This document shows positions 8,992-36,014 of a DNA stretch of 64,000 nt, in pieces (within the stretch, counting starts at the first letter, position 1; every line of letters starts with the position of its first letter). The position numbers and the translations under genes were made by a program. Source of the DNA: Eledone cirrhosa (Eukaryota); NCBI GenBank assembly GCA_964016885.1, contig OZ024740.1, forward strand, positions 433,628,001-433,692,000. Direction: 5' to 3'. Below the pieces are notes generated by a model. It saw only the letters and a list, made by a program, of their open reading frames with translations, made no database searches and was not told the origin of the DNA.

Positions 8992-11900
8992 TCTCTCTAT
9001 ATATAAAACGATAGATGTCTGTCTGTGTGTGTGTATGATTTTTATGCATTTCCACATTTCTCTACCGATTTTGATGATTTGTTTCCAATGTGCTCCAAAT
9101 TTACCAGGGCAGGTCAACGCGTAATTACTTTTGCCAAAGATTTCCTGCTTCTATGAAAAAAAATCGATAAAACTAAATACATGCTGTAACCCTCTCTCTT
9201 ACACGCTTCATTCCTCTCACTACCCTCAATCTCCTCTGCAACTCTCTTTAAAAGGTTACTGCCTCCGTCTCCATTACAGTTTAGAACAACTACAAATCTT
9301 CTCTCTCTATAATAGATCATTCCCCCTCTTCGTTCGTCATACATCAAATATCAAAATTTAAAAAGCCGATAACACTAAATACATACTGCTCTCTCAACGT
9401 TACATTTTACATCAAATAACAAATATTCAAAAGCAACAGATGAATTTATAAAACAACAAACGTAACAATAACGACGCTTAAGCGTTCATTTACTTGAATC
9501 TCAACAAAGACATTATATTTTATTGTTGTCCTTTTTGTAATTTTTCTTTCTTTGTTTTTCTCAATACGAGACAAAAAATTAATGAGAAAACTTTTTTAAC
9601 GAACGTCCGATTTCGATGATTTATTTTCCAGTGTGCTCCAAAATAACGCCCCTGTTTACACTCTTTTGTGCTATAACTCAGACAGGCTTGGCTTACAGGT
9701 TTGACCTATTATTTGACGTGCATTCTTCATAGATCTTACTTAGTACTTACTTTCCACTTACTCAGCGTTCAATTGAAAGTTTTGGCTACTCCCCCTTTCA
9801 TGCTCCATTATCTGCATAAATATTTACGTGTTCGGTCCTGCTACAATATAGTACTCACTTTAAACTAATTCAAAGTTCATTTGAACGCTAGAATCTACGG
9901 TCATGCCGCCCAAAAAAAGACCACGACTTAGTCGCCAAACTAAAGCTGCTTCTGCTGCCAAACGAAGAAGAGCTACAGAGTTGTCCGTAGAAAAATTGAC
10001 TCGGACGTCACAAAATGCAACTCGAAATGCAATTACCCGGACAACCGAGACAGAAAATAAGAGGAGCATCCGCCTTTCCGGAAATGCATTTGTAACTGCA
10101 GTTGCACGTGCAGCGTAAACTGATGAACAACATTTTCGACGACGAAGCAAAAATGTGGCATCCACCGCTGCGGCACGTGACGGTGAGGACGAAGAACACC
10201 GTTACAGTCGACGACGAAGAGATGCCGCCTCAACTGCTGCGTCACGTGCTGCCAAGGACGAAGGGCAGCGTTCCAGACGTCAACGTACGGACGCCGCTTC
10301 AACAGCCTCCTTTGAAGTCTCTATTGACCGGTGCCACAGCGGAGTCGGAACACTTCCTTCGATGTTCCAGGAGATACAACGCTGCCTTCCAAATGACCTC
10401 TTTCGGAGCTAACATCATACGCGAGGACGGCTTCATTCCTACCTTTAAAGTTCAAGGACAAATTTACCACAGAATCGGTTTGCTACTGCCCACGACAGAC
10501 GGACAGCCCCAGTTCCTACAGCTATACTTTGTCACTGACTATTTGGACCAAGCGGAACGACGCGGTTCAATTTCGCCTGGCACAGACATGAAATTTCTGT
10601 TGCAACTCCAGAGAATGCTGCACGAAAACAACAACTACATTCGCAGTTTTAAATGCGCATTGGAGGCTGCTCCGTTGCCAAATATTGCTGTTATAATCGA
10701 CGCTGACAGGAAACCACCAGGCACCCACGCCAGACGTTTTAACACTCCCATGTGCAATCAAATAGCTGTGCTTCTTCATGGAGAACAGTAGAACAAGCGG
10801 GACATCATACTTCAGTGTAGGGACAATAGTCTGCAACGGATCAGCGAGACGCATAGGTCCTACGACGCATTCCAATATCCCCTACTTTTCCCATTCGGCG
10901 TCGGCGGATACCACTTTGAATTCCTTTGTGCAACAGCAACAAAACTGTTTCCTGTATGCAATTCTACACCTACCAAGTCATGGTCCGCGAATGCTGCTTT
11001 AACCAACTCCACCGTGCAAGAGTTCTCTTCAACCAGCTTACTGTAGACGCGTGCGCTAAGATGGAATCTGAAAGGTTGTGCTACATAAGGAACAATCAAG
11101 CGCGCCTTCGTTCGGACAGCTACATTCACTTACGGGATGGAGTAAGGAATGACGTCGATCCGAGAACCTAGGAAAACATTGTATCCTTCCCTCGACCTTC
11201 ATTGGGAGTCCCCGATACATGAGTGAACGCACACAGGATGCTATGACGTACGTGCGTCTCTACGGCAGACCGGATCTCTTCATCACTTCAACATGCAACC
11301 CTAAGTGGAATGAAATTACCGCGGAATTATTCCCCGGATACAGGGCGTCAGACAGACACGATCTTACGGCACGAGTCTTTCACTTGAAGTTGACAAAACT
11401 TATTGAACTCCTAAAATCAGGTAAGGCTTTTGGACCTGTTAGGTGCTACGTATACACCGTTGAGGGGAAAAAGAGAGGCCTGCCACACGCTCACCTACTC
11501 ATTTGGCTGATAACGAAAATCAACACAACCAGCATTGACAGCATCATTTCAGCAGAAATACCCGACCCAAAATTGGACAGAGAACTCCACAACATCGTCA
11601 CGGCTCACATGGTTCATGGGCCATGCGGAAACGGTTTCAACATGAATTCTCCATGCATTAAAGAAAGAAGGTGCACCAAGAGGTATCCTAGGCCATTCCT
11701 CCGAGAAACTCGGATAGGTGGCGACGGTTATCCATTATACCGCCGCAGGGAGCCAGCGGACGGAGGAATTGTTATGAAAACACCACATCACAACGTCGAC
11801 AACCGGTGGATTGTACCCTACTGCCCACTTCTGCTTAAATTGTTTAACGCCCACATTAACGTTGAATACTGCCACTCCGTCAAATCGATAAAGTACGTCT

Positions 11901-13183
11901 GCAAGTATATCAATAAGGGGTCCGATGCTGCGTCCTTTGGTCTTACAATGGAGAACAACCGAGACGAAGTAACTCGATACCAGGTAGGCCGATACATCAG
12001 CAGCAATGAAGCATTCTGGCGATTCTTCCACTTTGCAATACACCATAACTACCCCCCAATCAAACAGTTGGAGGTGCACCTTGAAAACGGTCAAAGATTC
12101 TACTTCACCGCCTCCACCGCTGCTGAGATAGCAGAGGAACCCAAGGACACCACACTTACGGCATTTTTAAAGTTATGCCGAAACGATTCCTTCGCCAAGA
12201 CCATCTTCTACTCTCAGGTGCCATCATACTACACATGGAACACAGACAACAGAACTTGGTTAAGAAGGGTGAATGGACAACCCGTCGAGGGACATCCAGA
12301 CATTAAAATGTCCCCTACCCTTGGGAGAGTGTACACCATTCATCCTAACCAACAGGAATGCTTTTATCTCCGCCTTCTACTGCATGACGTGGTAGGACCG
12401 ACATCTTTCGACGATCTGAAAACAATCAACGGAGAGCTTTGTACTTCATTCCGCGCAGCCTGCCTTAGATGGGGTCTACTGGAAGATGGCGCTCAGTGGG
12501 ATGCGACATTGGCTGGGGCAGCTACAATACGCTCAGCGCGAACTCTTCGGCAACTCTTTGCGGTGCTACTGCAGACATGCGAGTTAAGCGACCCTGCATC
12601 CTTATGGGACAAATACAAAGAGGACCTTTCCGATAACTACATACACCAAGGACAACTGCTACTCCCTCATTCCTACGTACGACTCAGCGACGAATTCTTC
12701 AACAAAGTTCTCATTGACATCGAGGACAAAATCCTAACTGCCGGCGGAAATGACCTTCCATTCTATGGACTGCCAAAAGTTCAGCGAACGGGCTCCGACA
12801 AACTTCCGACGGGCATAATTCAGGAAACTTCCTACGACGTCCACGCCCTCAAACTGTTCATCAACGAAAACGAGCCGAAATTGTTGCAGGACCAACGGCA
12901 GGCGTATGACACAGTTTGCACTTCCATTCGTCAACGCAGAGGAGGTATCTACTTTTTGGACGCTCCAGGAGGAACTGGTAAAACATTCGTCAATAAACTC
13001 CTCCTCGCCAAAGTGCGACAACAGAAAGGAATCGCCCTGGCTGTGGCTTCTTCTGGCATTGCCGCAACTCTGCTGCCCGGAGGTAGGACAGCTCATTTCG
13101 CATTTAAACTGCCATTCAACACGAATTCAGACGACACAATAACCTGCAATAAACGCATGCGCAAAGAAGACAAAATAAAATAA
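8992..13183 (+). mobile_element. Helitron (rolling-circle transposon), 3'-truncated
   Basis: The 5' end A|TCTCTCTATATATAAAA followed by gtctgtctgtgtg is typical of animal Helitron 5' termini. A Rep-helicase coding region follows. No 3' hairpin plus CTRR was found. Confidence 0.88.
9903..13183 (+). pseudogene. Helitron Rep-helicase (HUH Rep plus N-terminal part of a PIF1-family helicase), frameshifted and truncated
   Basis: YNAAFQMTSFG..PTFKVQGQIYH..QLYF; Rep motifs GRPDLFITSTCNPKW, VE..KRGLPHAHLLIW (HUH) and KYVCKYINKG; helicase motifs FLDAPGGTGKTF and ASSGIAATLLPGGRTAH. The sequence breaks off near 13150. Confidence 0.95.
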
Positions 13184-13545
13184 ACAAATAAATAAATATA
13201 TAAACAGACTAAATAAAGATGGCGTAGAAAATACAATGCAACGGGAGGAAACAATAGCACCACTGACGCTGTTGCAGATGTGCAACGAAAGAACTGATAA
13301 ACTATAGATATGTGTTTGTGTCTATATTGTATCTGTATTATTTTTGACCGTTGGTCAGTCAATGGCAACATTGAGGACCGAACAAATTAGATTACCGATA
13401 TAAAAGACACAGAAGCGAAAAGCGAAAACCAACCAAACAGTGAGTGTGTTCTGTTATTAATTCTGGCAATATTACACAAATATGACCCTCCCCAAGTATA
13501 ACAATATTTGTTTCGACACACGATTTCATATAAAAAAGCTCGCAA

Positions 13546-13585
<40 letters not shown>

Positions 13586-13716
13586 GTGAGGTTTTTTTTA
13601 CAAAATGAAAAATAACCGAGGTGTCCTACACGAGTGAAAGTATAAAGAAAAAGAGATGAAATCGAAAATGCAACTGAAGTCTTATTTTTTTTTTAAATAT
13701 ATATATTTATTTGGTT

Positions 13717-13754
13717 CCTTTACCGGTTTCGCAGTTCTTCTGCTTTTCAAAAGG
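13717..13754 (-). ncRNA. Minimal type I hammerhead ribozyme (mirror copy of 13825-13862)
   Basis: Exact reverse complement within the palindrome. Confidence 0.7.
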
Positions 13755-13824
13755 TGAGTTGAGATGGAAGGTCTGTGGTTTTTCTCACATGTGAGAAAAA
13801 CCACAGACCCTCCATCTCAACTCA

Positions 13825-13862
13825 CCTTTTGAAAAGCAGAAGAACTGCGAAACCGGTAAAGG
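13825..13862 (+). ncRNA. Minimal type I hammerhead ribozyme with a U3-A8 variant core
   Basis: cctt-UUGAAAA-gcag(aagaa)cugc-GAAA-ccgg-UA-aagg: 4-bp helix I, 4-bp helix II and palindromic helix III ACCGGU. Confidence 0.75.
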
Positions 13863-13931
13863 AACCAAATAAATATATATATTTAAAAAAAAAATAAGAC
13901 TTCAGTTGCATTTTCGATTTCATCTCTTTTT

Positions 13932-13970
<39 letters not shown>

Positions 13971-14019
13971 ATATATATATATATATATACAAAACCTCGC
14001 AAAACTAATTCATCGCCGT

Positions 14020-14080
<61 letters not shown>

Positions 14081-14094
14081 GTGTGTATATATAT

Positions 14095-14662
14095 AAGTAT
14101 GTACACGTACATACATATATGTATACAGACGTACAGTAGTATGTATATATATATACATACATGCACACATATATATATATGTACGTATGGATTCACCGAA
14201 CATTTATTATAATGCTCGGTGTGTTTGTAAATATTTATATATACATACTACTGTACGTCTGTATACATATATGTATGTACGTGTACATACTTATATTTAA
14301 GTAACAGCCGTACTAAGAGTGAGAAATGAAATTTTGTTTCATTTTTTCCGTTTATCGTTTTCGGTGCACCCGGCCGATTAACCCACTCGATATGCAAATT
14401 GGGCTACTCAGCCGTTAATATGCATAAGGTAAGTATATACGTTCAACAATCTGGCAGGAAGGTATACGTTGCTGACGATAGCTAATAAGCTTGAAACTAG
14501 TACAGCGTTCCTTTGTCAGTGTTGAACAAACGAGCAACGATGGTTGCTAGACACTACGGCTTATTACGGGATGTTTGTTTACAAACACACCGAGCATTAT
14601 AATAAATGTTCGGTGAATCCATACGTACATATATATATGTGTGCATGTATGTATATATATAT
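14095..14662. mobile_element. HHR-containing PLE pseudo-LTR or retrozyme-like unit with an inverted, permuted partial copy
   Basis: 14095-14150 is the reverse complement of 14237-14294, and 14150-14230 is the reverse complement of about 14579-14660. An HHR lies at 14466. Confidence 0.7.
14466..14508 (+). ncRNA. Minimal type I hammerhead ribozyme
   Basis: acguug-CUGACGA-u agcu(aaua)agcu u-GAAA-cuag-UA-cagcgu: canonical core, 6-bp helix I and palindromic helix III ACUAGU. Confidence 0.88.
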
Positions 14663-14719
14663 ATATGTGTGTATATATACATATATATATATATATATGT
14701 GTGTGTATATATATATATA

Positions 14720-14750
<31 letters not shown>

Positions 14751-14860
14751 GTAATAATAATAAATTTGAAGACTAAAATCCAAAGAGGGCTCGATAAGGA
14801 TAAATATATATCAAATATATAAGAACCGTAGCGCAAATATTTATTAAAATAACAGATTAA

Positions 14861-14911
14861 AGTTTAAGCAAAGAATCGCTGCTTTCACCCTTAACGGGAT
14901 CTTCTGAAACT
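14861..14911 (-). ncRNA. Type I hammerhead-like motif with a U4A core deviation
   Basis: Minus strand: aguuu-CAGAAGA-u ccc(guuaa)ggg u-GAAA-gcag(cgauucu)uugc-UU-aaacu. All three helices can form. Confidence 0.6.
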
Positions 14912-14965
14912 AACAAAGTCAATCTGTAAACGCAGACGGAGGAAGACAGGAAGACGATACTTTGG

Positions 14966-15248
14966 TTCGTGGAAACGTTCCCTGGCAAAGAACGGGAAAA
15001 AAACGAATATAATACGTCATTAATAAGAGCGGTGAAAAACAATTACGCGCAAAGACAGAACCACGTTTATGGTATAAAAGAGGTCGTAGACTAATGTTCT
15101 CTTAGGTGGTTCATCGAGTCGTTCTCTGGCAATGAACGAAAAAAACGAAGATAATACGTCATATGTGGAGCGTGGAGAACAATTGCGCGCAAAGACAAAA
15201 CCACGTAAATGGTATAGCAGAAGTCGTAGACTAAAATTCTAACTAGGA
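14966..15248. repeat. Diverged ~142-bp tandem duplication in the PLE 3' region
   Basis: Copies at about 14966-15107 and 15110-15248 share cgttc..tggcaa.gaacg, ataatacgtcat, caatt.cgcgcaaagaca.aaccacgt..atggtata and gtcgtagactaa. Confidence 0.85.
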
Positions 15249-15824
15249 GACCGAATTAATCTCCGCTACAGAGTTAAGAACAAAGTAAATAAATACAATA
15301 CAGATGTAATAGAAATTAAATAAATACATACACGCATACAAATACGTACATACACAAGCATACGCGAAAACACTTACCATAGGTATACAAAACCACGCAC
15401 ATATAAATATGTGTGTGTGTGTGTATGCGTGTATACAAATAAATAAATAATTAAATAAACGTATATAAATAATAAATACGTATATAACAAGCGCACACAC
15501 ATACCTACATGTAAATACACAAATCTTCGGAGACGTATGTCAACCAAAACATGAAGTACACATATACACACACCCTACATACGTACGAACCTGCATACTC
15601 ACACAGACGCAAAACTCCCATCTACACATAACCAAACCAATGTACCAGAATATATTAAATTTTACGCCATAACATATACAATCAAATATACGTACGAGAA
15701 GGTATACGTACCTTCACAAAACATACAGGTAATATATACTTACCTATGCAAATAAGTAATGGTATAAACAAAACATATACTTAACTACCACATCAAGACG
15801 TAAAATATCCACGTATAGATCGTA

Positions 15825-16338
15825 CTATCCGTTAGGGTATAACGTGGGGCTGTAATACAGGAAAGTTTTGTGCAATTTATGTTTACAAGCCGAAATTGCC
15901 TCAGATTTTTTGTTTAAGATGTGGTCTGTGGCGTAGAGTATTTCCAGGGCCTCAGCGGCGCAGAGGTCACATGGTCTTTTATTTCCGTTATACGATCTAG
16001 CCCTAGCTAGGATCTCCCAGTGTAACTTATATTGGGTGTGGTTGTCTTTTAGACTCCAGATATAAGCTGAAAATGACGTCATATTCCTTCTTAGAGGGTA
16101 ACGAAAAGAATGGGTATGCATGTAAAGACGCTGCTTGAATCTATTGGCGGTTAACCCTATGTAGGCCCTACGGGACGTGGGTGTTACAACCTTACCTTTG
16201 TAGACAATGTTACTAGAGAGGCATTTCCCGGATAGAGGGCAATCAACCTGATTCCTACAATTACAGTTAGTACTAACTACAGGGTTGCACGTGTTCCTAC
16301 GGCTAGGTAGTTTAGCTAAATTTGAAGCTGTGATGTTA
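15825..16338 (-). pseudogene. PLE C-terminal GIY-YIG endonuclease (intact reading frame, RT missing)
   Basis: [51 protein letters not shown]. The N-terminal part of the track ORF is (TA)n noise. Confidence 0.9.
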
Positions 16339-16346
16339 TATATGTA

Positions 16347-16410
<64 letters not shown>

Positions 16411-16537
16411 CACATATATACATACATATACACATATATATACACATATATACACATATATATACACATATATATACATACATATACACATATATATACA
16501 CATATATATACATATACACATATATATACACATATAT

Positions 16538-17049
16538 ATGGTGGCTGCCAACTCGCTTTCGAGTACGGCCACTACTTTATATCCATATAGGAGAACCCCT
16601 ACCGATGCAGTGAACGAGTGTGACCCTTCAGCCCAGCCAGCGACCCGAAAACTCCGGCACAAACACTACACCCGTGACAAACATTGACACACAGTGCTGG
16701 GGCCATGGTATGCCTGTGCCGTGAAGCTTTTATAGCGAGCAAAGGCACTGCACAAAGCCAGTCCCACTCTCTTAACCAAGATGATATCTACCAAAAAGAA
16801 GAACAAGTCAACATCATTGGATACCATCAGGGTTGCAGGTGTTATATCAGAGTTTTCCTTCTCCTAGAATTCTGCCTTGACAAAGGCTAAGGGGTCATCT
16901 CTCCCGGTGATTTTGGATGGCCATTGACTCTTAAGAGCTCCTTTGCCCTTTGACAGGTCTTGTTTTTAGTCCTGCAGGATGTCCAAAGTCACCCTCCTCA
17001 CCAAGAAACCTTGGTGGGGTTGCCAGTTTAGTCGCCAACGACCCGACCA
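16538..17049 (-). mobile_element. Non-autonomous RTE-derived bipartite element, copy 1 (5'-truncated, with a small internal deletion)
   Basis: Closely similar to 18796-19405. It carries an RTE 5'-UTR-like motif (ctaggagaaggaaaactctg) and an RTE-like 3' hairpin tail. Confidence 0.75.
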
Positions 17050-17086
17050 TATATATACATATATACATACATATACAGATATATAT

Positions 17087-17133
<47 letters not shown>

Positions 17134-17232
17134 GTAATAATAATCTGTTATTTTAATAAATATATATACATATATACATACATATACACATATATATATC
17201 CATACATATATATATACATATATATATATATA

Positions 17233-17366
17233 TCATCATCATCATTTTACGTCCGCTTTTCCCTGCTTACAAGGGTGGGACGGAAACTGATTCTAGCTTG
17301 ATTTCTACAGCTGAGTAAACTGGAGCAATGTGAAATAAAGTGTCTTGTTCAAGGAAACAACACATC
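17233..17366 (-). mobile_element. SINE fragment (family B core plus (GAT)n tail)
   Basis: ggagcaatgtgaaataaagtgtcttgttcaagga matches the core at 34540-34578 (reverse complement) and at 34860-34890. Confidence 0.6.
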
Positions 17367-17485
17367 ACATATACATACATATATACATATACATACACAT
17401 ATACATACATACATATATTTATATACATACATATATACATACATATATATATATACATAATATATATATATACATACATATATAA

Positions 17486-17546
<61 letters not shown>

Positions 17547-17547
<1 letters not shown>

Positions 17548-17586
17548 GATGGCTGCCCCCTCGTTATCGAGTATGGCCATTGCACA
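17547..17586 (-). mobile_element. 3' terminal hairpin of an RTE/BovB-type LINE
   Basis: Minus strand tgcaatggccatactcgataacgagggggcagccatcat. It lies downstream of the RTE ORF that ends at 18052. Confidence 0.55.
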
Positions 17587-17632
17587 ATAAAAAAAAAAAT
17601 AAAAATAAAAAAAAAATAAAATAAAATAAAAA

Positions 17633-17727
<95 letters not shown>

Positions 17728-17736
17728 GGGGAAAAG

Positions 17737-17775
<39 letters not shown>

Positions 17776-17895
17776 TACATATATATATATATACACATAT
17801 ATATACACACACACATACATACACATACATACATATATACACACACACATACATACACATACACTCACACATATATACACACATACATTAATAAC

Positions 17896-17932
<37 letters not shown>

Positions 17933-18051
17933 GCAATAATAATAATAACGACAACAACAATAATAATATACATATTCATATATATATACACACACACGCA
18001 CGCACACAAGCATATCTACACACACACACACACACAAACACACGATAGCAA

Positions 18052-18655
18052 CTAACAGTGCTGCGATCGAATGTGGCTTTTTAGCCCAGCCAATGATCTA
18101 AAATGTCTTGCACAGAGTCGGCAACCAAAACATTTACTGGGAATAGTCGGCTGTGGTTGGAGTTCGTGTACTTTTGCATGTCGCTTGAGTCCTCCTGCTG
18201 ATTTACATTCTCTACCACATGTTTGGCAAGCATGATGAGTAGCATCTCCAACAGCAGCCTGGTAGTCAACCACTGGTCTTACTTTATGACTGCGAAGATG
18301 ACTTTCGAGTCCAGCTTTGCTTAGGCAGAGTCTCACACAGACGCTGCATGTCAGAAACATAGGAGGACCCTCGCCGTCTGGAAGTGCAACAGCAATACCC
18401 TTCCTCACGTACCGCTTTACTTTCTCGTGTGCGATTCGAGATGCCTCAAAGGCAACTTTTCCCTCATATACAGTCTTTCTCCATTTATTACGATCAGCAG
18501 CAATATTTTCCCATGTATCAGCAGAGATGTTAGCGTCTTTCAGAGAGGCTTTCAAGGAATCCTTATACCTCTTTTTTGGTTTATGTGGCGGTCGTTTTCC
18601 TTTAACCAACTCTCCATAGAAGAGTTGTTTTGGTATTCTAGAATCCTTCATCCAT
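18052..18655 (-). pseudogene. RTE-BovB LINE C-terminus with three C2H2 zinc fingers (5'-truncated)
   Basis: [18 protein letters not shown]...[15 protein letters not shown]....TWE.IAADR.KWR is the typical BovB C-terminus. Fingers: CSVC..H..H, CQTC..H..H and CRLC..H..H. Confidence 0.88.
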
Positions 18656-18666
18656 ACATATATACA

Positions 18667-18698
<32 letters not shown>

Positions 18699-18795
18699 CA
18701 CATATATATATATATACATATATATATATACATACACATATATATACATATATGCATATATGTATACATTCATATATACATACATATACATACAT

Positions 18796-19405
18796 ATGGT
18801 GGCTGCCAACTCGTTTTCGAGTACGGCCACTACTTTATATCCATGTAGGAGAACCCCTACCGAAGCGCTGAACGAATGTGACTTTTTAGTCCAGCCAGCG
18901 ACTTGAAAGCTCTGGTACAAACACTACACCTGTGACAATTATTGACACATAGTGCTGGGCCCATGATACCATGTGACGACAAGTGCAGAGAGATCACCAG
19001 ATATAAAGCAATGCCTGTGCTGTGAAGCTTTTATAGTGAGCAAATGCACTGCACAAAGCCAGTCCCACTCTCTTAACCAAGATAATATTTACCAAAAAGA
19101 AGAACAAGTCAACATCATTGATTACCATCAGGGTTGCAGGTGTTATATCAGAGTTTTCCTTCTCCTAGAATTCTGCCTTGACAAAGGCTAAGGGGTCATC
19201 TCTCCCGGTGATTTTGGATAGCCATTGACTCTTACGAGCTCCTTTGCCCTTTGACAGGTTTTGTTTTTAGTCCTGCAGGATGTCTAAAGTCACCCTCCTC
19301 ACCAAGAAACCTTGGTGGGGTTGCCAGTTTAGTCGCCAACAACCCGACCATGAGACAAGTTGTACTGGGATACATGTTACCAGTAGCACCAACTGGTGAC
19401 CTGAC
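18796..19405 (-). mobile_element. Non-autonomous RTE-derived bipartite element, copy 2
   Basis: Longer copy of 16538-17049, flanked by (TA/CA)n on both sides. Confidence 0.75.
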
Positions 19406-19558
19406 ATACATATACATACATGTATACATACATATATATATATATAAATACATACATACATATATATAAATACATACATACATATATATATAAATACATA
19501 CATACATATATAAATACATACATACGTATATATATAAATACATACATACATATATATG

Positions 19559-19610
<52 letters not shown>

Positions 19611-19733
19611 GGAGGTGAGTTTTATTGTAGTACAATAAAGCAATGCAGATATCGGATAAGAAGCACTCTACAGTTTGTAGGACTGGAGTATACATAATAT
19701 AAGATCAAAAGATGGTTAAAGGAGTTCCATGTA

Positions 19734-19800
19734 TTTTATTATGCGCATTTCAAAAACAAACATCATCATGCAATAATATTTGTGTTTTCATCAGATAAAA
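19734..19800 (-). ncRNA. Type I hammerhead ribozyme (mirror copy of 19917-19983)
   Basis: Reverse complement within the inverted repeat. Confidence 0.8.
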
Positions 19801-19916
19801 CAGGAGAACATGATATGAAGGCTAAAAAACACTTGTGGATAGTGCAGTTATATATATGTTGATTTAAAACTGCACTATCCACAAGTGTTTTTTAGCCTTC
19901 ATATCATGTTCTCCTG

Positions 19917-19983
19917 TTTTATCTGATGAAAACACAAATATTATTGCATGATGATGTTTGTTTTTGAAATGCGCATAATAAAA
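19917..19983 (+). ncRNA. Type I hammerhead ribozyme with a long helix II
   Basis: uuuuau-CUGAUGA-aaacacaaauauuauu(gcau)gaugauguuuguuuuu-GAAA-ugcgca-UA-auaaaa: canonical core and palindromic helix III AUGCGCAU. Confidence 0.88.
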
Positions 19984-20015
19984 TACATGGAACTCCTTTA
20001 ACCATCTTTTGATCT

Positions 20016-20059
<44 letters not shown>

Positions 20060-20100
20060 ATATTAAATAAATGGAAACTATATTTATAAAACGATATTTA

Positions 20101-20159
20101 TTTTATTATATATATTTCAAGGGTACCAAGACACATTGATACGCTTTCATCAGATAAAA
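20101..20159 (-). ncRNA. Type I hammerhead ribozyme in the inverted pseudo-LTR
   Basis: Minus strand: uuuuau-CUGAUGA-aagcguaucaa(uguguc)uugguacccuu-GAAA-uauaua-UA-auaaaa. Confidence 0.88.
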
Positions 20160-20565
20160 TGCAAAGTTTGTTTTATAAATAGAGACATACCCATGAAAAT
20201 CATACTTTATCGGTTGGAAATTCACTGGATAGTGGAAATATATTAGTGATTTTTCAAACTTATGTGTGAATATGCAAATTTATATGTAAATAATTAAAAA
20301 ACAACCGTTTATTTAAACGACTATGGAAAGAGAAGAGAGAAGAGATAGGAGCAGAGGATAAAATAGTGCGAGAGAGAGAGAGAGAGAGAGAGAAGAAAAA
20401 AACGAGAGGATGAATAAAACTCATATAACGTTAATTTGAGGGAAATATATTCTAATTATATATCTTAATAGTAAGTGTATTTACAATTATTAGTTGTTTA
20501 AAATTTGTTTATAATATAATATTTTTCTTCTGTTATAAGTAGACAAATAAATAAATAAATAAATA

Positions 20566-21997
20566 TTGCAAATGGATATTGCAAACTACTACTCCTCTAT
20601 TACTCCTAGTTTACTTAATAAAGCTCTTATCTATGCATCTAAACATACAGATTTATCTAGCGAAGAAATGCATATCATTTTAACTGCACGGAAAACTTTA
20701 ATTGAATTCAACAATCATCTCTGGACAAGAGCCGATAGAAAAAATAATTTTGATATCACCATGGGATCATCTGACTAGGCGCAAATAACGGATCTTGTGG
20801 GGCTATTTATTAATAATACACTGCATAGAAAAATACCAGAGATGACCGGTGGTTTATATCGTGATGATATGCTGCTTTTAATTGAAAATCATAGTAATTG
20901 TAAAATTAATAAGAAAAGAAAATCCATAATACAATTCTTCAATAGCTACAACCTTAAGTTAGAAATAGAGAATAACTATAAAATTGTTAACATTCCATAA
21001 AATTAATGGGAATCTAAATTATGTAAATTTTAACTCTAATCATCCTAGATCTATCAAGAACACTATCGTCAATTCTGTCCAACAACGGATTTCACGCATC
21101 TCCGCTAATAAAAACATGTTTGACGATAAGGCAGAATATTATAATGAAGCTTTAAATAGAGCAGGGTATATAAATAGGATTAAATACACCGACAACAGTA
21201 ATAAGGCAAATGACCCTACTATTAATTGTAATAATAATAATAAAAAATTTAACTTAAACTCTAAAACTAACAGAAGAACTATAACTAGAAATATTATTTG
21301 GTACTCACCCCCATTCTCATTAAGCCTAAATACACATTTAGCAAAGCTATTCTTTAAAGCACTAGATAAATGTTTTCCTAAAGCCCACAGATACCACTCA
21401 ATCTTTAACAGACATACTATAAAACTATCCTACTCTACTACTATGAACATAGCACAAAATATAAATAGAATTAATAATAGAAATTTAAACCCTAACCAAA
21501 ATAACCAAAATAGCAGTAATATCTCTAGTAACATCCAACATAATAGTACCGTTCCGAACAACAACAAATGTAACTGTAGAATTAAATTAAACTGTCCGTT
21601 ACAAAATAAGTGTTTAGATAAAAACGTGGTCTATAAATGTACAGTTAAAACTAGTGATAATATATTTAACTATGTAGGTGCAACTTCTACAGAATTTAAA
21701 AGTCACTGGAATAATCATAGATGCTCTTTTCAAAGATTTGATAAAAAATCTTCAACTTCTCTTTCAAACCTGATATGGAACTTAAAATGCAAGAATATGG
21801 ACTATACATTAGCTTGGGAAATAGTTTCAATAGCACCCGCGTACTGAAACACAGCTTTATCTAGATTCTGCAAATTGTGTATTGAGGAAATTTTTTTCAT
21901 ACTTAAATGTAAAAACTCTATTAATCTAAGAACGAATTTATTTAATTCTTGTAGACATCGCCTGAATTCAATATTCAGAACTATATATAAATTATAA
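20566..21997 (+). pseudogene. PLE reverse transcriptase (from motif A onward) plus GIY-YIG endonuclease, disrupted
   Basis: DIANYYSSI, FDITMGS, GLYRDD, YVNFNSNHP, RNIIWYSPPFS, IFNRHTIKLSYS, CNCR..CPL..KCL..VVY..YVG. After a TGA at 21845 the frame continues with CKLC..E...CRH to a TAA at 21997. There is a TAG at 20776 and a frameshift or deletion near 20990. Confidence 0.92.
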
Positions 21998-22789
21998 TTA
22001 TACTTATAATATTTCTACTTATTTCCATAACAATCTCATCCACTTGGTTTAAATATATTGATATCTCTAAATCATAATATCTATAACATTTGCTATAATT
22101 CCACTTCTTAAAATTTCATAAAATATATACGTATATAATTCTAATTTTTTTAAAATTTTAATCTTAATTTTAATTTTTATTTCTTTATTTTTATTTCTTT
22201 AAAATTACTTATCTCTTATAAATTATTTTAAAAAAAATTTCTCAAATTTTTAATATTTTTTAATACTGTATCAATATTTTTTCAATACTGTATCAATATT
22301 TTTTTCAATATTTTTCAATAGATTTATAACCACTAACTGATTCTGGCTAAATGTATCTTCCAACATCTATACTTATTTTAACTAAATAGTCTCACACTAA
22401 CGAATAAATAAATTAAACCAGAGTTTTTTCTGTATATTCCCATTTTAATTTAATTCAACTTAATATTTATTTACATTAAATACAAAACCAATATCCCTCA
22501 TAAATCATTAGAACAATTATCTATAACATGATATACCCATCTATTTATTTATTTATGTATTTATTTATTTATGTATTTATTTATTTATTTATTTTATTTA
22601 TTTATGTACTTATAACAGAAGAAAAATATTATATTATAAACAAATTTTAAACAACTAATAATCGTAAATACACTTACTATTAAGATATATACTTAGAATA
22701 TATTTCCCTCAAATTAACGTTATATGAGTTTTATTCATCCTCTCTTGTTTCTTTCTTCTCTCTCTCACTAGCACTATTTTGAATCCTTC

Positions 22790-23070
22790 CCCAGCATCAA
22801 TGACTACCAACATGACTTCCACTTCTGAAAAGCCAAATCTACTGGACTCCAGTCCTACGACACTCACCAATAGGTCCTTCCCCTAGAGAAATTTTATGAA
22901 AATAATGTGGCTGCTCTTGACATCAGTAAAATATTCAATTATGTCAATCATAACAAACATTTGGATTGGAACTTGTATGTCCAATAGCCCCATTGCAACA
23001 TCAGTTAATGGTGCCCCACCCCTCACTTTCACCCACACTCAATCAACTTTGGTGTACCTCAGGGTAAGGT
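22790..23070 (+). pseudogene. Old degenerate non-LTR RT fragment (CR1/Jockey-like)
   Basis: Manual translation gives ALDISKIFNYVNH at about 22913-22951 and NFGVPQG at about 23044-23064. Confidence 0.6.
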
Positions 23071-23630
23071 TATGTTTTCTACACAGGACTAGATTAAGTC
23101 CTTTTGCAACCTTATGCACTTAAAAGATTTTTTTTATGGTTGATCATAACTGCTATCATTAATTATTACTTGCAGAAAAACCTCCCTTTGGTGTAATCAG
23201 TGATGTAATCCACGATACATTAAAAAAAGACGACATATATAAACTGCATATATGATAAACTAAAATGTTATGAAAATGAAAAAGGAGAAAATTAATGAGG
23301 GAAACATAAACCTTATATAACGATGCAAATATATGAATGTTTATATAAGTGATGTGATGAGTGTTATGATATAATGGACATTAACTGGAAGTGTTGACAT
23401 TTGAAAATTTTAAAGAAGTGAATGTTAAAATAAACAGTACTTTATATAATAATAATAATGAAATTATTGTGTACGGTGCTCAGGTGCACTACAACTCATC
23501 AAAGGTGCATGTATAGTTTATAGAATAACATATAAATGTCAGGAAAGTGAACAGTGTATGAGTCATGATATACATGTGTGCATGTGTATGTAGGGGGATA
23601 TCAGGTGTAGTGTTGGTGAATCTCAGGAAG

Positions 23631-23816
23631 CATGGAGGTTTTAAAGGATGCAGTGTCTCGACAGCTAACAACTGATGCAGGGAGTTTGTTCCATGGAGGT
23701 TTTAAAGGATGCAGTGTCTCGACAGCTAACAACTGATGCAGGTAGTTTGTTCCATGGAGGTTTTAAAGGATGCAGTGTCTCGACAGCTAACAACTGATGC
23801 AGGGAGTTTGTTCCAT
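23631..23816. repeat. 61-bp tandem triplication inside the CR1 ORF2 3' end
   Basis: catggaggttttaaaggatgcagtgtctcgacagctaacaactgatgcagggagtttgttc at 23631, 23692 and 23753. Confidence 0.95.
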
Positions 23817-25952
23817 GCTTCAGCAACTCTGAGCATGAAAAAATGTTTCCGAAAGTCATGGGAACTGTGCTGTTTTCTGACTTTGTTGGCATGCCCATGT
23901 GTGTTAGACACATGGAAATCAAAAAGGTGCTCAGGGTTGTTGTTGGCAAGATGGCTAATAATTTTGTGGGTATTTACCAAGTCAGTTGCCAGATGTAAGA
24001 GCTTCAATGTATCCATGCCCAGGGAAGCAAGGCGTTCAGAGCATGGTAGGTGCCTGATGGAGGGTATTTGCTTGGCTGCTCATCTCTGAACAGTTTCCAG
24101 GCGGTCAATGTTCTGAGCAAGATAGGGGTTCCAGACTGGTGATGCAAATTCTAAGTGTGGCCACACCATAGCTGTATACAGCTTTAAATAGACAGTTGAA
24201 GAGTGGCTGACAAAGGTTTTGCTGAGTAATGTTAAGACACCCTCGGCCTTCTTGACAATCTTAGAGACGTGCTTTGTCCAACGCAAATCGCTGCTGACAG
24301 TAATGCCCAGGTCACATTCACAAGAAGACTTCTTGATATCAGTGTTGTGGAGGGAGTATGTAGACGCTGGATTTTTCCTCCCAAAATGCATGGTGGTACC
24401 TTGTCCACGGCCAGCTTCAGTTGCCAGTCTGTGATCCATTGCTGCATTGTGTCCAGGTCAGGCTGCAAGCAAGATCTATAGTGTTCAGGATCTGTCCTTT
24501 TTATCTCAAGGTACAGCTTGATGTCATCTGCATATTTCAGTACTGTGGCATTCTTTAAGTTGGCATCTATGTCATTAATATATGCCACAAACAAAAGGGG
24601 ACTAAGAACAGATCCTTGTGGTACACCAGATGACATCTCATAGGGTGAGGGATGTTGTCCTAGAACCATGACTACCTCTCTTCGACTGAGAATGAAGGAC
24701 TTCAACCAGTTAAAAAGATCATCCTTCACACCCATAACAGAGAGTTTTGCCATAAGTCTTTTGTGTGGCACAGAATTAAAAGCTTCAGCAAAGTCAAGGT
24801 AAACAACATCCACCCATGAGCCGCCATCAGTGATCCAGGTAATGTCTTCAAGAAACTCGATAAGTCGATCACAGCAGCTGAAGCTAAGGATAAATCCAAA
24901 TTGTGGGGGCCAGATAAGACTGTGAGAATTCCAGAAGTTCCAAAGTGTTTCTCTGACACAGGATTCTATCAGTTTGGCAATACAGCTAGTAAGACTGACT
25001 GGACGACGTGCAATCACCCTTTTTGAACAGAGGAATGATACTGGCAGTTTTCCACTGCTCCGGAGTAGCACTGTTGCTAAGACAGAATTGAAAGAATAGT
25101 GAAAGCTGGTGCAGAAGGAAATACCCACCACGTTTAAGAAGCAGGTACGTAACACCATCAAGACCAGGAGAGGCATGGTTGTGTTTATTCTTAAGGTGAC
25201 ATCGCAGCATTGCAGGTGTAAATTCCATAATTGTTATAGAATTTGATGTCAGAGATAGTGGAGATGGTACATTACGGTCTTCAACAGTGAAAATGTTTGC
25301 ATAGCATTCAGCAATGAGTTCTGCGCATTCCTTGGGGTAATCAGTAACCTGGCTTGTGTGGGGATTGTGAAGAGGACCAACTGGAGAGTGAGGCCTCTGC
25401 TTTGAATGTACATATTTCCAGAACACTTTACTGTCAGGGCTGGTTGCTATGCGCTCTTCAAATTCAAGCACTGCCTTTTTTGTCACCTGCTTGAGATGGT
25501 TGGATAATTTATTTCGCTTTTTCCTATTGATATCTGATTTATGCAGTTTGTACTCACGTTCAGCATTACGACATTCTTTCCTGGCAAGACGGACTGCTGC
25601 AGTCTCCCAAATTGTAATTTTGGGATGTTTTTTTTTTTGCTTACGTGGCACTGATGCTGCACATGCTGTCCATATTGGGCTCAGGATGTTCTGGAGTACA
25701 GCGTTGACATCTCCAGAGTCATAAAATTCAATCCAGTTTGGATGTTGCAGCTCGGTGCAGTAACAGTTCCAGTCTGCTTTATTGCAGTCAAAGTGAGCAG
25801 TTTGGAGATGGTTGTGGTATTTGTTACTGCCCATGAGGGACAGATTGGCAATGATCATAGCATGATCAGAGTCACCTAAACGTTCCTAAGTAGTAACACT
25901 AATAACCGTTTCAGGAGTAGTGGTGAAGAATAGGTCCAAAGTGTTGTCACCT

Positions 25953-26126
25953 CTTGTTGGGGAGGTGACTACTTGGGACCAATTCAAGTCCAGCACTTGT
26001 TGGGGAGGTGACTACTTGGGACGAATTCAAGTCCAGCACTTGTTGGGGAGGTGACTACTTGGGACCAGTTCAAGTCCAGCACTTGTTGGGGAGGTGACTA
26101 CTTGGGACCAGTTCAAGTCCAGCACT
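25953..26126. repeat. 43-bp tandem repeat x4 inside the CR1 APE region
   Basis: cttgttggggaggtgactacttgggacca.ttcaagtccagca repeated four times. Confidence 0.95.
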
Positions 26127-26209
26127 AACTCAAGGAAGTCATTTGCACTTGGCGGCCAACATGTATAAGAATAAGAGTCAGATGCCAGGCTTTCCAGGTA
26201 AGTTACATC

Positions 26210-26340
26210 CCTTTATGGTCTGAGTTCAAATCCCGCCAAGGTTGACTTTGCCTTTCATCCTTACGGGGTCGATAAAATAAAGTACCAGTAATGCACTGGG
26301 ATAATTGCTGGCCTTGTGCCAAACGTAGAAACAATTATTA
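26210..26340 (+). mobile_element. tRNA-derived SINE family A, 5'-truncated
   Basis: Runs from the B-box gagttcaaatccc through the core to tagaaacaattatta. Confidence 0.88.
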
Positions 26341-26346
26341 AATATG

Positions 26347-26532
26347 ATAATTGTTTCTACTTTTGGTACAAGGCCAGCAATTATTCCAGTGTATTACTGG
26401 TACTTTATTTTATCGACCCCGTAAGGATGAAAGGCAAAGTTAACCTCAGCGGGATTTGAACTCAGAATGGCAAGGACCGTAACTCTATACGTCAAAGCAT
26501 GGCATCCGACCCTCTACCAATTCTGCCAATTC
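26347..26532 (-). mobile_element. tRNA-derived SINE family A, full length
   Basis: Near-identical to 1801-1988. Confidence 0.9.
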
Positions 26533-26635
26533 AAGACAACAATCACTGGTCATATCAAGGAAATGGTTTTGTATTCCTACCCTTATACAAATACATCATA
26601 ATCACAGATAATCTCTCCTGGTAATCTCACATCTA

Positions 26636-26768
26636 AGGCAGCAAATTGGTAGAGTCATTAGAACATAAGATAGAATCCTTTGCAGTATGACTTCTGGCTT
26701 TCTGCTCTCTGAGTTCAAATCCCACCAAGGGTGACAGAAAAATAACTGTCTAGTACTGGGGTCAATTC
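26636..26768 (+). mobile_element. Degenerate SINE related to family A
   Basis: ggcagcaaattggtagagtc...ctgagttcaaatccc...tagtactggggtcaa, with the core deleted. Confidence 0.55.
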
Positions 26769-27118
26769 TTCTTCTATATTTCTTTCTCACTTCCTTTCTC
26801 TCACTTTCTATCCCTCTCATTCTTTATCCTTCTCTGCAAGAAATCTGCTGTGTTCAAGCTTGAAGAGTCTGCTATGTTCTAAAATGGCCAAGACATGCTG
26901 TGTGTTATTATGACACCTCCTACAAATTTAACAGTGGAAAACTACATTCCAAAGATTGATATTTATCTTTAGAGTCATACATCACTTCCAAACAAGTGTT
27001 AAATCTCTAAAAAGCTCAGGTAACATGCTCACCCTTAATGGAATACTGCAGGGTCAGTAGTGTAGCTAGGGTGGCGTTAGTGGGGACAGTCCACCTTGGA
27101 GTGACACACAAAATCTCT

Positions 27119-27880
27119 GTAAAAATACCATATTTATTATAGAAGGGGGAGCACTAAAACCTAGCAGTAAATAGCTAACCCCCAAATACAAATCCCGGCA
27201 GACATTAACACTAACCATAAACAAGCAAACCTAGGACCACACCAAAATCCTCCGATGTCCTAGCAATAACCATAACATAACCCCAACTACCACAAACGAG
27301 ATATAACTACTAACTAATGCAGTAGAAATCATAGTAATTACTCTACAATCTTAACATTGACTACTATATCATTGCAAACACATTGGATTTAGTCTATAAA
27401 AATACCACATATTTGATAGAAGGGAGAGTACAAAATCCTAGCAATAAATAGTGACTGAACTTAAGAGTTAACCCCTAAAATCAAATGCCACCAAACACTA
27501 ACGCTAAACTTATACCCTAAACATGTCCGTGAACTTTAGGACTAGCTTTAAACCAACAAACCTAAGCCCACCCTAAAATTCTCCGATGTCCTAGCAATAA
27601 CCATAACATAACCCCAGCCTTAACACCAATCTTAATAAAAGGGATACAAATGGATTAATTTAAACTTTGTTTATAAAATACCATATTTATAATAAGAAGG
27701 GGGGGGGGGGGTGGAGTCACTAAGACCCAGTAGTAAATATTCACTGAACGTAATTGCTAACCCCTAAATTCATATCCCAACAAACTCTAATGCTAACCTT
27801 GAATCTTTCATGAAAATTAAGACTACACCAGCGTCCCTAAGCCCTAAATTCTGCCGATACCCTAGAAATAGCCATAAAAT
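27119..27880. repeat. Old ~277-bp tandem repeat, about 2.7 diverged copies
   Basis: taaaa(a)tacca.at.t..tagaaggg at about 27120, 27396 and 27673; cctagcaataaccataacataacccc at about 27260 and 27591, with a diverged copy near 27861. Confidence 0.8.
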
Positions 27881-28080
27881 ATCTAATGGTCTCATGCATC
27901 AAATAAATATTGTCTCAAGTCTAACATAAATTCTTAAATTGAATTTAATAATATCATGAAATAAATTCCATATTTTTATACAACTCGAAAAGCATACATC
28001 TAAAAACTATATTAGTAATCTCCTTTTAAACGTTAATTTAAATGATGTTTTAAAAAAAGTTTTGTACACACAGACACAAG

Positions 28081-31000
28081 ACTGAAGCAGGTCTGCTGAT
28101 ATCCATGTTGTTCTGTACAATGGGCATATAAACCCACTGAAGCAGGTCTGCTGATATCCATGTTGTTCTGTACAATGGGTCTATAAACCCACTGAAGCAG
28201 GTCTGCTGATATCCATGTTGTTCTGTACAATGGGTCTATAAACCCACTGAAGCAGGTCTGCTGATATCCATGTTGTTCTGTACAATGGGTCTATAAACCC
28301 ACTGAAGCAGGTCTGTTGATATCCATGTTGTTCTGTACAATGGGCATATAAACCCACTGAAGCAGGTCTGCTGATATCCATGTTGTTCTGTACAATGGGT
28401 CTATAAACCCACTGAAGCAGGTCTGCTGATATCCATGTTGTTCTGTACAATGGGTCTATAAACCCACTGAAGCAGGTCTGTTGATATCCATGTTGTTCTG
28501 TACAATGGGCATATAAACACACTGAAGCAGGTCTGCTGATATCCATGTTGTTCTGTACAATGCGTCTATAAACCCACTGAAGCAGGTCTGCTGATATCCA
28601 TGTTGTTCTGTACAATGGGCATATAAACCCACTGAAGCAGGTCTGTTGATATCCATGTTGTTCTGTACAATGGGCATATAAACCCACTGAAGCAGGTCTG
28701 CTGATATCCATGTTGTTTTGTACAATGGGTTTATAAACCCACTGAAGCAGGTCTGCTGATATCCATGTTGTTCTGTACAATGGGCATATAAACCCACTGA
28801 GGCAGGTCTGCTGATATCCATGTTGTTCTGTACAATGGGTTTATAAACCCACTGAAGCAGGTCTGCTGATATCCATGTTGTTCTGTACAATGGGTCTATA
28901 AACCCACTGAAGCAGATCTGCTGATATCCATGTTGTTCTGTACAATGGGTCTATAAACCCACTGAAGCAGGTTTGTTGATATCCATGTTGTTCTGTACAA
29001 TGGGCATATAAACCCACTGAAGCAGGTCTGCTGATATCCATGTTGTTCTGTACAATGGGTCTATAAACCCACTGAAGCAGGTCTGCTGATATCCATGTTG
29101 TTCTGTACAATGGGTCTATAAACCCACTGAAGCAGGTCTGCTGATATCCATGTTGTTCTGTACAATGGGTCTATAAACCCACTGAAGCAGGTCTGTTGAT
29201 ATCCATGTTGTTCTGTACAATGGGCATATAAACCCACTGAAGCAGGTCTGCTGATATCCATGTTGTTCTGTACAATGGGTCTATAAACCCACTGAAGCAG
29301 GTCTGCTGATATCCATGTTGTTCTGTACAATGGGTCTATAAACCCACTGAAGCAGGTCTGCTGATATCCATGTTGTTCTGTACAATGGGTCTATAAACCC
29401 ACTGAAGCAGGTCTGTTGATATCCATGTTGTTCTGTACAATGGGTCTATAAACCCACTGAAGCAGGTCTGCTGATATCCATGTTGTTCTGTACAATGGGT
29501 CTATAAACCCACTGAAGCAGGTCTGCTGATATCCATGTTGTTCTGTACAATGGGTCTATAAACCCACTGAAGCAGGTCTGCTGATATCCATGTTGTTCTG
29601 TACAATGGGTCTATAAACCCACTGAAGCAGGTCTGTTGATATCCATGTTGTTCTGTTCAATGGGGCATATAAACCCACTGAAGCAGGTCTGCTGATATCC
29701 ATGTTGTTCTGTACAATGGGTCTATAAACCCACTGAAGCAGGTCTGCTGATATCCATGTTGTTCTGTACAATGGGTCTATAAACCCACTGAAGCAGGTCT
29801 GTTGATATCCATGTTGTTCTGTACAATGGGCATATAAACCCACTGAGGCAGGTCTACTGATATCCATGTTCTGTACAATGGGTTTATAAACCCACTGAAG
29901 CAGGTCTGCTGATATCCATGTTGTTCTGTACAATGGGTCTATAAACCCACTGAAGCAGATCTGCTGATATCCATGTTGTTCTGTACAATGGGTCTATAAA
30001 CCCACTGAAGCAGGTTTGTTGATATCCATGTTGTTCTGTACAATGGGCATATAAACCCACTGAAGCAGGTCTGCTGATATCCATGTTGTTCTGTACAATG
30101 GGTCTATAAACCCACTGAAGCAGGTCTGCTGATATCCATGTTGTTCTGTACAATGGGTCTATAAACCCACTGAAGCAGGTCTGCTGATATCCATGTTGTT
30201 CTGTACAATGGGTCTATAAACCCACTGAAGCAGGTCTGTTGATATCCATGTTGTTCTGTACAATGGGCATATAAACCCACTGAAGCAGGTCTGCTGATAT
30301 CCATGTTGTTCTGTACAATGGGTCTATAAACCCACTGAAGCAGGTCTGCTGATATCCATGTTGTTCTGTACAATGGGTCTATAAACCCACTGAAGCAGGT
30401 CTGCTGATATCCATGTTGTTCTGTACAATGGGTCTATAAACCCACTGAAGCAGGTCTGTTGATATCCATGTTGTTCTGTACAATGGGTCTATAAACCCAC
30501 TGAAGCAGGTCTGTTGATATCCATGTTGTTCTGTACAATGGGCATATAAACCCACTGAAGCAGGTCTGCTGATATCCATGTTGTTCTGTACAATGGGTCT
30601 ATAAACCCACTGAAGCAGGTCTGCTGATATCCATGTTGTTCTGTACAATGGGTCTATAAACCCACTGAAGCAGGTCTGCTGATATCCATGTTGTTCTGTA
30701 CAATGGGTCTATAAACCCACTGAAGCAGGTCTGTTGATATCCATGTTGTTCTGTACAATGGGCATATAAACCCACTGAAGCAGGTCTGCTGATATCTATG
30801 TTGTTCTGTACAATGGGTCTATAAACCCACTGAAGCAGGTCTGCTGATATCCATGTTGTTCTGTACAATGGGTCTATAAACCCACTGAAGCAGGTTTGTT
30901 GATATCCATGTTGTTCTGTACAATGGGCATATAAACCCACTGAAGCAGGTCTGCTGATATCCATGTTGTTCTGTACAATGGGTCTATAAACCCACTGAAG

Positions 31001-34000: not shown

Positions 34001-34304
34001 GTTCTGTACAATGGGTCTATAAACCCACTGAAGCAGGTCTGCTGATATCCATGTTGTTCTGTTCAATGGGGCATATAAACCCACTGAAGCAGGTCTGCTG
34101 ATATCCATGTTGTTCTGTACAATGGGTCTATAAACCCACTGAAGCAGGTCTGTTGATATCCATGTTGTTCTGTACAATGGGTCTATAAACCCACTGAAGC
34201 AGGTCTGTTGATATCCATGTTGTTCTGTACAATGGGTCTATAAGCCCACTGAAGCAGGTCTGTTGATATCCATGTTGTTCTGTACAATGGGTCTATAAGC
34301 CCCA
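28081..34304. repeat. 55-bp satellite array, about 113 units (cccactgaagcaggtctgctgatatccatgttgttctgtacaatgggtctataaa)
   Basis: Contiguous, highly homogeneous units without spacers. All MYRTTWISAD ORFs are artefacts. Confidence 0.98.
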
Positions 34305-35942: not shown

Positions 35943-36014
35943 ATGTCCACAGAGAAAGAAAGCGCAGGCTTAAACAACACCATTAGTAATAGCAAGCTAA
36001 TGAGGAAGTTTCTA

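Follow-up and report, generated by a model that had tools for sequence, protein, structure and literature searches.

Minimal hammerhead ribozymes are a known attribute of Penelope-like elements (PLEs), for which opposite-strand pairs 100-700 bp apart, thousands of single motifs per genome, U3-A8 cores, a palindromic helix III and a low, dimer-dependent activity have been described (Cervera and de la Pena 2014, PMC4209133). Among the PLE clades, Hydra elements are characterized by Craig et al. (2021, PMC8557442) by the motif DKT, an RWK-like motif, the motifs CxCX5C, CxxC and CxH, hammerheads and (TA)n targets, and Naiads are described in the same work as having an N-terminal endonuclease and no canonical hammerheads, and as being present in cephalopods merely as remnants. 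For PAc, a Poseidon element of the anole, Frangieh et al. (2024, PMC11167929) report that reverse transcription begins at two internal sites, which accounts for the tail, that insertion in vitro persists in hammerhead mutants and that cleavage requires the protein. Here we analyse a stretch of 64,000 nucleotides from the 3.0-Gb genome assembly of Eledone cirrhosa (contig OZ024740.1, positions 433,628,001 to 433,692,000; this whole stretch is called the window and supplies the coordinates), in which seven hammerhead folds lie within 6.5 kb. They represent five independent insertions of abundant hammerhead repeats, which have likely piled up because such repeats insert into (TA)n tracts, a reading to which we assign a probability of about 0.88.

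A descriptor for type I hammerheads (core CNGANGA or TTGANAA, helix I of at least 4 bp, helix II of at least 3 bp, helix III palindromic or of at least 4 bp) has exactly seven matches in the 64-kb window, with cores at 13750(-), 13829(+), 14472(+), 14906(-), 19794(-), 19923(+) and 20153(-), and none in any of 100 dinucleotide shuffles of 13500-20300. All seven folds proposed in a first-pass annotation of this DNA are thus present at the places given there, and its plus-strand cut sites, after 13858, 14502 and 19977, are correctly positioned. The descriptor was designed after the seven motifs were known, i.e. its real controls are the shuffles and an independent sample of the genome. The motifs are grouped into families A (13829+ and 13750-), B (14472+), C (14906-), D (19923+ and 19794-) and E (20153-). 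As 13641-13938 (A) and 19689-20028 (D) are near-perfect palindromes, with arms that are 99% and 98% complementary, and the A and D pairs are the head-to-head arms of these palindromes, the earlier count of seven separate loci is right for motifs, but reduces to five for insertions.

Families A, B, D and E follow the type I hammerhead plan, i.e. helices I-III surround C3/U3-U4-G5-A6-N7-G8/A8-A9, G12-A13-A14 and U16.1-H17, and helix III is self-complementary in just these four of the five motifs, as had been noted before, with predicted duplex energies of -8.3 (A), -4.8 (B), -10.5 (D) and -3.2 kcal/mol (E). A core of the form (C/U)UGANRA, initially thought to be common to all motifs, is found in the same four families, but not in the motif at 14861(-), which reads CAGAAGA. 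At the base of helix II both B and C have a U-U mismatch (U10.1-U11.1). The Rfam search that had been suggested as a check is of no help here, with 0 matches at the gathering score in the window and nothing at that score at two hammerhead-rich loci of the genome sample. Among 150 listed of the 156 weak Rfam matches in 13000-23000 there is no hammerhead; the weak matches are microRNA hairpin models sitting on palindromes and TA repeats and were rejected.

The families are by no means confined to the window. Counting arms rather than insertions, the family patterns match 16,985 (A), 31,503 (B), 38,691 (C) and 21,276 (D) times in the genome with at most one mismatch and 466 times (E) with at most two, and the reversed patterns used as controls give 0 matches for every family. 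In 60 evenly spaced stretches of 10 kb the descriptor has 33 matches, as compared to 0 in one shuffle of each; four of the 33, located in L192, are satellite artefacts and were removed from later counts. Extrapolated from the remaining 29 matches in 600 kb, the genome would contain roughly 145,000 intact motifs, a load that Rfam does not detect and that goes unmentioned in a 2026 repeat annotation of Octopus vulgaris, in which 'ribozyme' has 0 occurrences. The sample also contains at least six further hammerhead families (at L169, L173, L188, L210, L213, L216 and L224), including another U3-A8 core (L216) and types with a long helix II.

After merging of inverted pairs, the 60 stretches hold 26 insertions, which are overdispersed (variance/mean 1.75, p=0.0003) and correlate with the (TA)n counts (Spearman 0.46, p=0.0002), the mean number per stretch being 0.07 in the TA-poor half and 0.80 in the TA-rich half. 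The cluster region itself has 25 (TA)6+ tracts in 6.8 kb, compared to a median of 6 per 10 kb, and a negative-binomial fit to the 60 stretches gives about 640 clusters of at least five insertions per genome. For this genome the cluster is nothing out of the ordinary, and target preference would commonly give rise to clusters of this kind. The view that five separate PLE or retrozyme families with minimal type I hammerheads lie together in (TA)n-rich DNA is thereby upheld, whereas the proposal that they form a local ribozyme-retroelement system is not supported, the motifs being dispersed copies of families with hundreds to tens of thousands of matches and similar pile-ups being present in the genome sample.

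It might be suspected that the cluster is an array of ribozymes kept by selection and at work on a host or element transcript running through the locus, on the grounds that five families in 6.5 kb far exceed the Poisson expectation and that all seven folds are intact. Intact folds, however, are expected because the copies are 88-99% identical to their families, and as many as four insertions are found in 2 of the 60 sampled stretches. Moreover, the motifs lie on both strands, none of them is accompanied in the window by a second motif of its family on the same strand, and A and D are each held in a fold-back, with predicted energies of -240 and -261 kcal/mol and 96-98% of the bases paired. A transcript through the A or D palindrome would pair sense with antisense, so the two pairs cannot supply the partner for a dimer. 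Such an array is therefore very improbable.

Several points weigh against our interpretation of the cluster as five ordinary insertions. A Poisson model gives only 4-25 such clusters per genome, and the link to (TA)n is partly circular because the insertions bring TA at their own ends. Of 150 anchored loci, 29 have another of the five families within 1.5 kb, as compared to 27 of 180 background windows of 3 kb with any family, a pairwise co-occurrence hardly higher than the background. As to the identity of the elements, the clade calls rest on motifs, a Pfam scan of three Hydra-type proteins gave no family, and no coding parent of B was found among the copies examined. The features of the five insertions are compiled in Table 1.

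Table 1. Hammerhead motifs and the insertions that carry them, in window coordinates.
Feature	Position	Strand	Description
Insertion A	13580..13938		Head-to-head pair of putative Neptune/Nematis-type 3' ends between (TA)n tracts
Hammerhead A, inverted arm	13717..13754	-	U3-A8 core UUGAAAA, palindromic helix III
Hammerhead A	13825..13862	+	U3-A8 core; predicted cut after 13858
Insertion B	14088..14660	+	One non-coding retrozyme-like unit of ~420 nt, about 14231-14660, and inverted partial arm; right end approximate, inside a TA run
Hammerhead B	14466..14508	+	Core CUGACGA, U10.1-U11.1 mismatch, palindromic helix III; predicted cut after 14502
Insertion C	14751..16337	-	5'-truncated element, Hydra clade by motifs: endonuclease end, 3' untranslated region with 140-bp repeat, hammerhead, long tail
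Hammerhead C	14861..14911	-	Core CAGAAGA (U4A), U10.1-U11.1; predicted cut after 14866
Endonuclease remnant of C	15825..16337	-	Open 170-aa C-terminal piece; CxCX5C, CxxC, CxH motifs
Probable C stub	17133..17165		~30 nt, both family C ends head-to-head, without hammerhead; read by eye against the family ends, boundaries approximate
Insertion D	19608..20023		Head-to-head pair of 3' ends, Hydra clade by motifs; left arm end +136, right +53
Hammerhead D, inverted arm	19732..19802	-	Second D motif of the palindrome
Hammerhead D	19915..19985	+	Canonical core, long helix II, palindromic helix III; predicted cut after 19977
Insertion E	20056..22769	+	Broken element, Hydra clade by motifs
Hammerhead E	20100..20160	-	Canonical core, palindromic helix III; in the adjacent element's inverted arm

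The parents of A, C, D and E encode the reverse transcriptase (RT) first and a GIY-YIG endonuclease last, which is opposite to the domain order of Naiads, and they carry complete hammerhead folds as well as DKG (A) or DKT (C, D and E) instead of the DKA of Naiads. Because of this domain order and the canonical hammerheads, the designation 'Naiad-type' used in the first-pass annotation does not apply. Naiads do favour (TA)n, make tandem or inverted insertions and are listed for Octopus, some of them with a bare or half hammerhead core (PMC8557442), and for B alone a Naiad helper is conceivable. Yet all four coding parents have a C-terminal endonuclease, which refutes a Naiad origin for A, C, D and E, and that the hammerheads of the window belong to Naiads is almost certainly wrong. 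C, D and E are instead to be placed in the Hydra clade as judged from their motifs: each has a single frame for RT followed by GIY-YIG, with DKT and an RW motif whose third residue differs from the published K. Between C and D, identity across the entire frame is 37%, and between A and C it is 22% over 223 aa. A homolog search with the C protein yielded 1,201 relatives, mostly unnamed and with no clade label.

Insertion A is 96-97% identical to the 3' end of a full-length element, its left and right arms ending at +148 and +79 relative to the cut site, and the core TTGAAAA is present in 75 of the 78 family A copies examined. Homology within the family continues upstream into the end of an endonuclease, and many copies, located by a protein search, have an open frame of 775 aa with RVT_1 at 295-441 and GIY-YIG at 682-772, with GLKF, DKG and a CX4CxxC linker preceding the C-terminal GIY-YIG. 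In all six such loci examined, the hammerhead lies about 1.1-1.4 kb behind this frame. On these motifs, the coding parent of A is assigned to the Neptune/Nematis type, the two clades not being told apart. In a full-length parent (L260:3680-5000, plus strand) an upstream frame of about 440 aa is out of phase with the RT frame and overlaps it, which points to a possible ribosomal frameshift; some PLEs are described with such an open reading frame 1 (PMC8557442).

Insertion B is different in kind. It is 93-97% identical to the units of a five-copy tandem array, and its inverted arm (14088-14231) is partial and has no hammerhead. The spacing of B units in tandem arrays is 420-433 nt at four loci and 456-502 nt at a fifth, and the longest ATG-started frame across three units has 97 aa. 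In the copies examined no coding sequence is shared upstream of the unit; what is found there is the previous unit or unrelated flank. Position 3 of helix I is paired in 56 of 58 copies, compared to a shuffle mean of 29, and five pair types occur there (T-G, G-T, A-T, C-G and T-A), the other helix I positions being near invariant. Since the copies are related and some loci overlap, they are not independent, and this count, which bears on selection for the fold, reflects a few changes along lineages.

As a short non-coding tandem unit with one type I hammerhead each, B fits a retrozyme without long terminal repeats (LTRs), and it presumably borrows the enzyme of a PLE. Alternatively, B could be debris of the pseudo-LTR of an unseen coding element rather than a self-standing retrozyme: hammerhead B has the style of the Hydra clade, i.e. 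U10.1-U11.1 and a four-base loop 2, as in the table of the PMC8557442 supplement, and its insertions have the same two-end footprint as the other families. The upstream sequences, the regular spacing and the shortness of the frames described above argue against this origin, which we regard as unlikely. A B subfamily with the longer unit of 456-502 nt forms a six-copy array at L162:6717-9674, which is joined via a TA tract to the truncated 5' end of a C element. A partnership of B and C, raised by adjacent copies in L153 and L162, was considered and rejected, as the junction viewed is a (TA)n tract and the two families co-occur in only 4 of 30 and 2 of 30 cases.

Insertion D and the 3' end of an element whose open frame has 821 aa are 98-99% identical, and the family D frames, 762-821 aa long, contain LRWTA or LRWIA, SDKT, CxCX5C, CxxC and CxH. 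In insertion E, 20056-20565 is an inverted 3' arm and 20569-22769 a plus-strand RT-endonuclease remnant with its 3' untranslated region, which halts short of its own hammerhead. Insertion E is 88-95% identical to a copy with two pseudo-LTRs, and its translations have stops and frameshifts; the pieces of this broken copy contain LRWRAF, SDKT, CxCX5C, CxxC and CxH, and in L128 and L130 an endonuclease lies upstream of hammerhead E on the same strand. The junction D-(TA)n-E recurs at a second locus (L131), which fits repeated targeting of the TA end of an element.

In all five families the insertions favour two 3' end points, which lie downstream of the cut site and 59-96 nt from each other, a footprint like the tail published for PLEs. 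Relative to this site they end at about +79 in 14 and at about +148 in 20 of 44 copies of A, at +216 in 15 and +275 in 7 of 45 copies of B, at +29 in 23 and +117 in 16 of 50 copies of C, at +53 in 25 and +136 in 17 of 46 copies of D, and at +57 in 13 and +153 in 9 of 36 copies of E, and similarity is lost near the cut site itself in at most three copies per family. Head-to-head pairs (n=52) combine one short and one long end in 35 cases and two alike ends in 0, the remaining 17 having a disturbed end. (TA)4+ directly follows the ends in 33/44 (A), 20/45 (B), 32/50 (C), 37/46 (D) and 21/36 (E) copies. Where A, C, D and E occur as tandem copies, the long end sits in the leader, and the sequence beyond it leads into the start of the next reading frame. 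Single-sequence folding predicts a similar short stem beyond both ends in C and E, which is unclear in A, B and D.

Based on these footprints, which match the two internal start sites reported for PAc, we propose that the endonuclease of the element would cut TA-rich DNA and that both broken DNA ends would prime reverse transcription on an uncut or circular RNA, at two internal sites downstream of the hammerhead. The two 5'-truncated products would be joined head-to-head, resulting in a palindrome with one long and one short arm, and the residual TA tracts would serve the next insertion. The A and D palindromes as well as the inverted arms of B and E in the window fit such two-end priming, and the probable C stub suggests that an insertion may contain next to nothing of its element. 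Any hammerhead activity would be exerted in tandem source transcripts, where the motifs probably work as dimers or aided by protein, and the copies in the window are likely inert passengers.

Family C is the most numerous of the five, with about 39,000 copies, and near-intact coding copies are still present: near-full frames elsewhere have 645 and 712 aa and contain LRWRAF, SDKT, CxCX5C, CxxC and CxH. Insertion C is 92% identical to a near-full-length copy over 1,620 nt, and its 170-aa remnant is 95% identical to the C-terminus of the 712-aa RT-endonuclease frame in L270. The helix III of hammerhead C is a true stem of 5 bp with a 7-nt loop, but the core is exceptional as the invariant U4 of the uridine turn is replaced. 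In exact-match counts of the core, which leave G at position 4 uncounted, CAGA accounts for 17,754 of 17,872 matches, CTGA for 72 and CCGA for 46, and owing to this dominance A4 is the family state of C. In contigs from four independent runs that cover C, no second letter reaches the 5% level at position 4 of the core; these contigs are of unspecified type and uninformative as to expression and RNA ends. A separate CUGA subfamily was considered and rejected: 10 CTGA copies viewed have no common distinct flank, several of them lie at fold-back joints, and the CTGA count is near the CCGA count, making scattered changes more likely.

Perreault et al. (PMC3088659) describe U3-A8 and U10.1-U11.1 as well as a viroid U4C, and U4A is not named in the main text of that work; we found no report of a 'U4A' hammerhead in the literature, the coverage being incomplete, so that its unpublished status is not proven. 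In a mutational scan of another hammerhead (PMC9901934), every single change in the CUGA turn gave low activity. Family C might be a natural knock-out that dispenses with cleavage while spreading genome-wide, a tentative idea to which we give somewhat less than an even chance. If the core cannot cut, a Hydra-clade element does not need hammerhead cleavage to spread through a genome in vivo; this would carry the in vitro finding on the anole element further and support the notion that the ribozymes ride along. Conversely, rescue of activity by the stable helix III or by the protein of the element would make C a natural core variant of which we found no description. In either case, C provides a direct test of whether PLE spread needs cleavage, for which D and E, of the same clade and genome, can serve as controls with a canonical core.

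The cluster is bounded by a Helitron fragment at 11153-13180 (+), the 676-aa open frame of which comprises Helitron_like_N and a PIF1 helicase and ends abruptly just before the cluster, and by a fragment of a long interspersed nuclear element at 24235-25233, within a stretch at 24083-25885 (-) with an RVT_1 frame; another such fragment, a 3' end with C2H2 zinc fingers, lies at 18055-18834 (-). Two copies of another repeat (16540-17048 and 18797-19340), 82-96% alike, both begin at a TA tract and have no descriptor match. Two satellites occupy 28081-34302, where a 55-bp unit is present in 113 copies, and 38809-64000, where a 20-bp unit is repeated about 1,269 times up to the end of the window.

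Each architectural feature of these insertions has already been published: pseudo-LTRs that carry minimal hammerheads, pairs of motifs on opposite strands, a palindromic helix III, cores of the U3-A8 type, the U-U mismatch where helix II begins, tails, insertion into (TA)n and, for Octopus, Hydra elements. Family A has the U3-A8 core in common with the minimal hammerheads of Cercyon from Schistosoma (PMC4209133) and exhibits all motifs of Neptune/Nematis PLEs, i.e. GxKF, DKG, a CX2-5CxxC linker and the C-terminal GIY-YIG, but differs by the upstream frame of about 440 aa that overlaps the RT frame. Family B resembles metazoan retrozymes without LTRs (Cervera and de la Pena 2020, PMC7229834; Li, Clavereau and Pollet 2026, 10.64898/2026.07.22.740005) in being an AT-rich non-coding unit that forms tandem arrays and has one type I hammerhead; with 420-430 nt, this unit is near the upper limit of the 150-450 bp published for them. 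In contrast to these retrozymes, B has inverted arms of the Penelope type and terminates at two fixed points.

C, D and E share with the published Hydra-clade PLEs the 3' hammerhead, the (TA)n targets, the inverted 5'-truncated arm and the one-sided tail. However, tails of 30-40 bp are published for Hydra PLEs as compared to 83-96 nt here, and the Hydra rows of the published table all have CTGA, whereas the fourth core position of C is A. None of the five motifs matches the printed hammerhead of Hydra-1_oBim from Octopus bimaculoides, so the first-pass supposition that the families are uncatalogued may hold for these exact families; it fails for the kind of element, as Hydra-1_Obim of Octopus is already listed with its hammerhead in the PMC8557442 supplement. 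Copy numbers of up to 21,000-39,000 also set the present families apart from published Hydra PLEs. The anole PAc element, finally, has two start sites downstream of the hammerhead that explain a one-sided tail like that of the families of the window, but it belongs to another clade and its start sites are described inside the reading frame, whereas those of the window families would lie in the leader before the frame.

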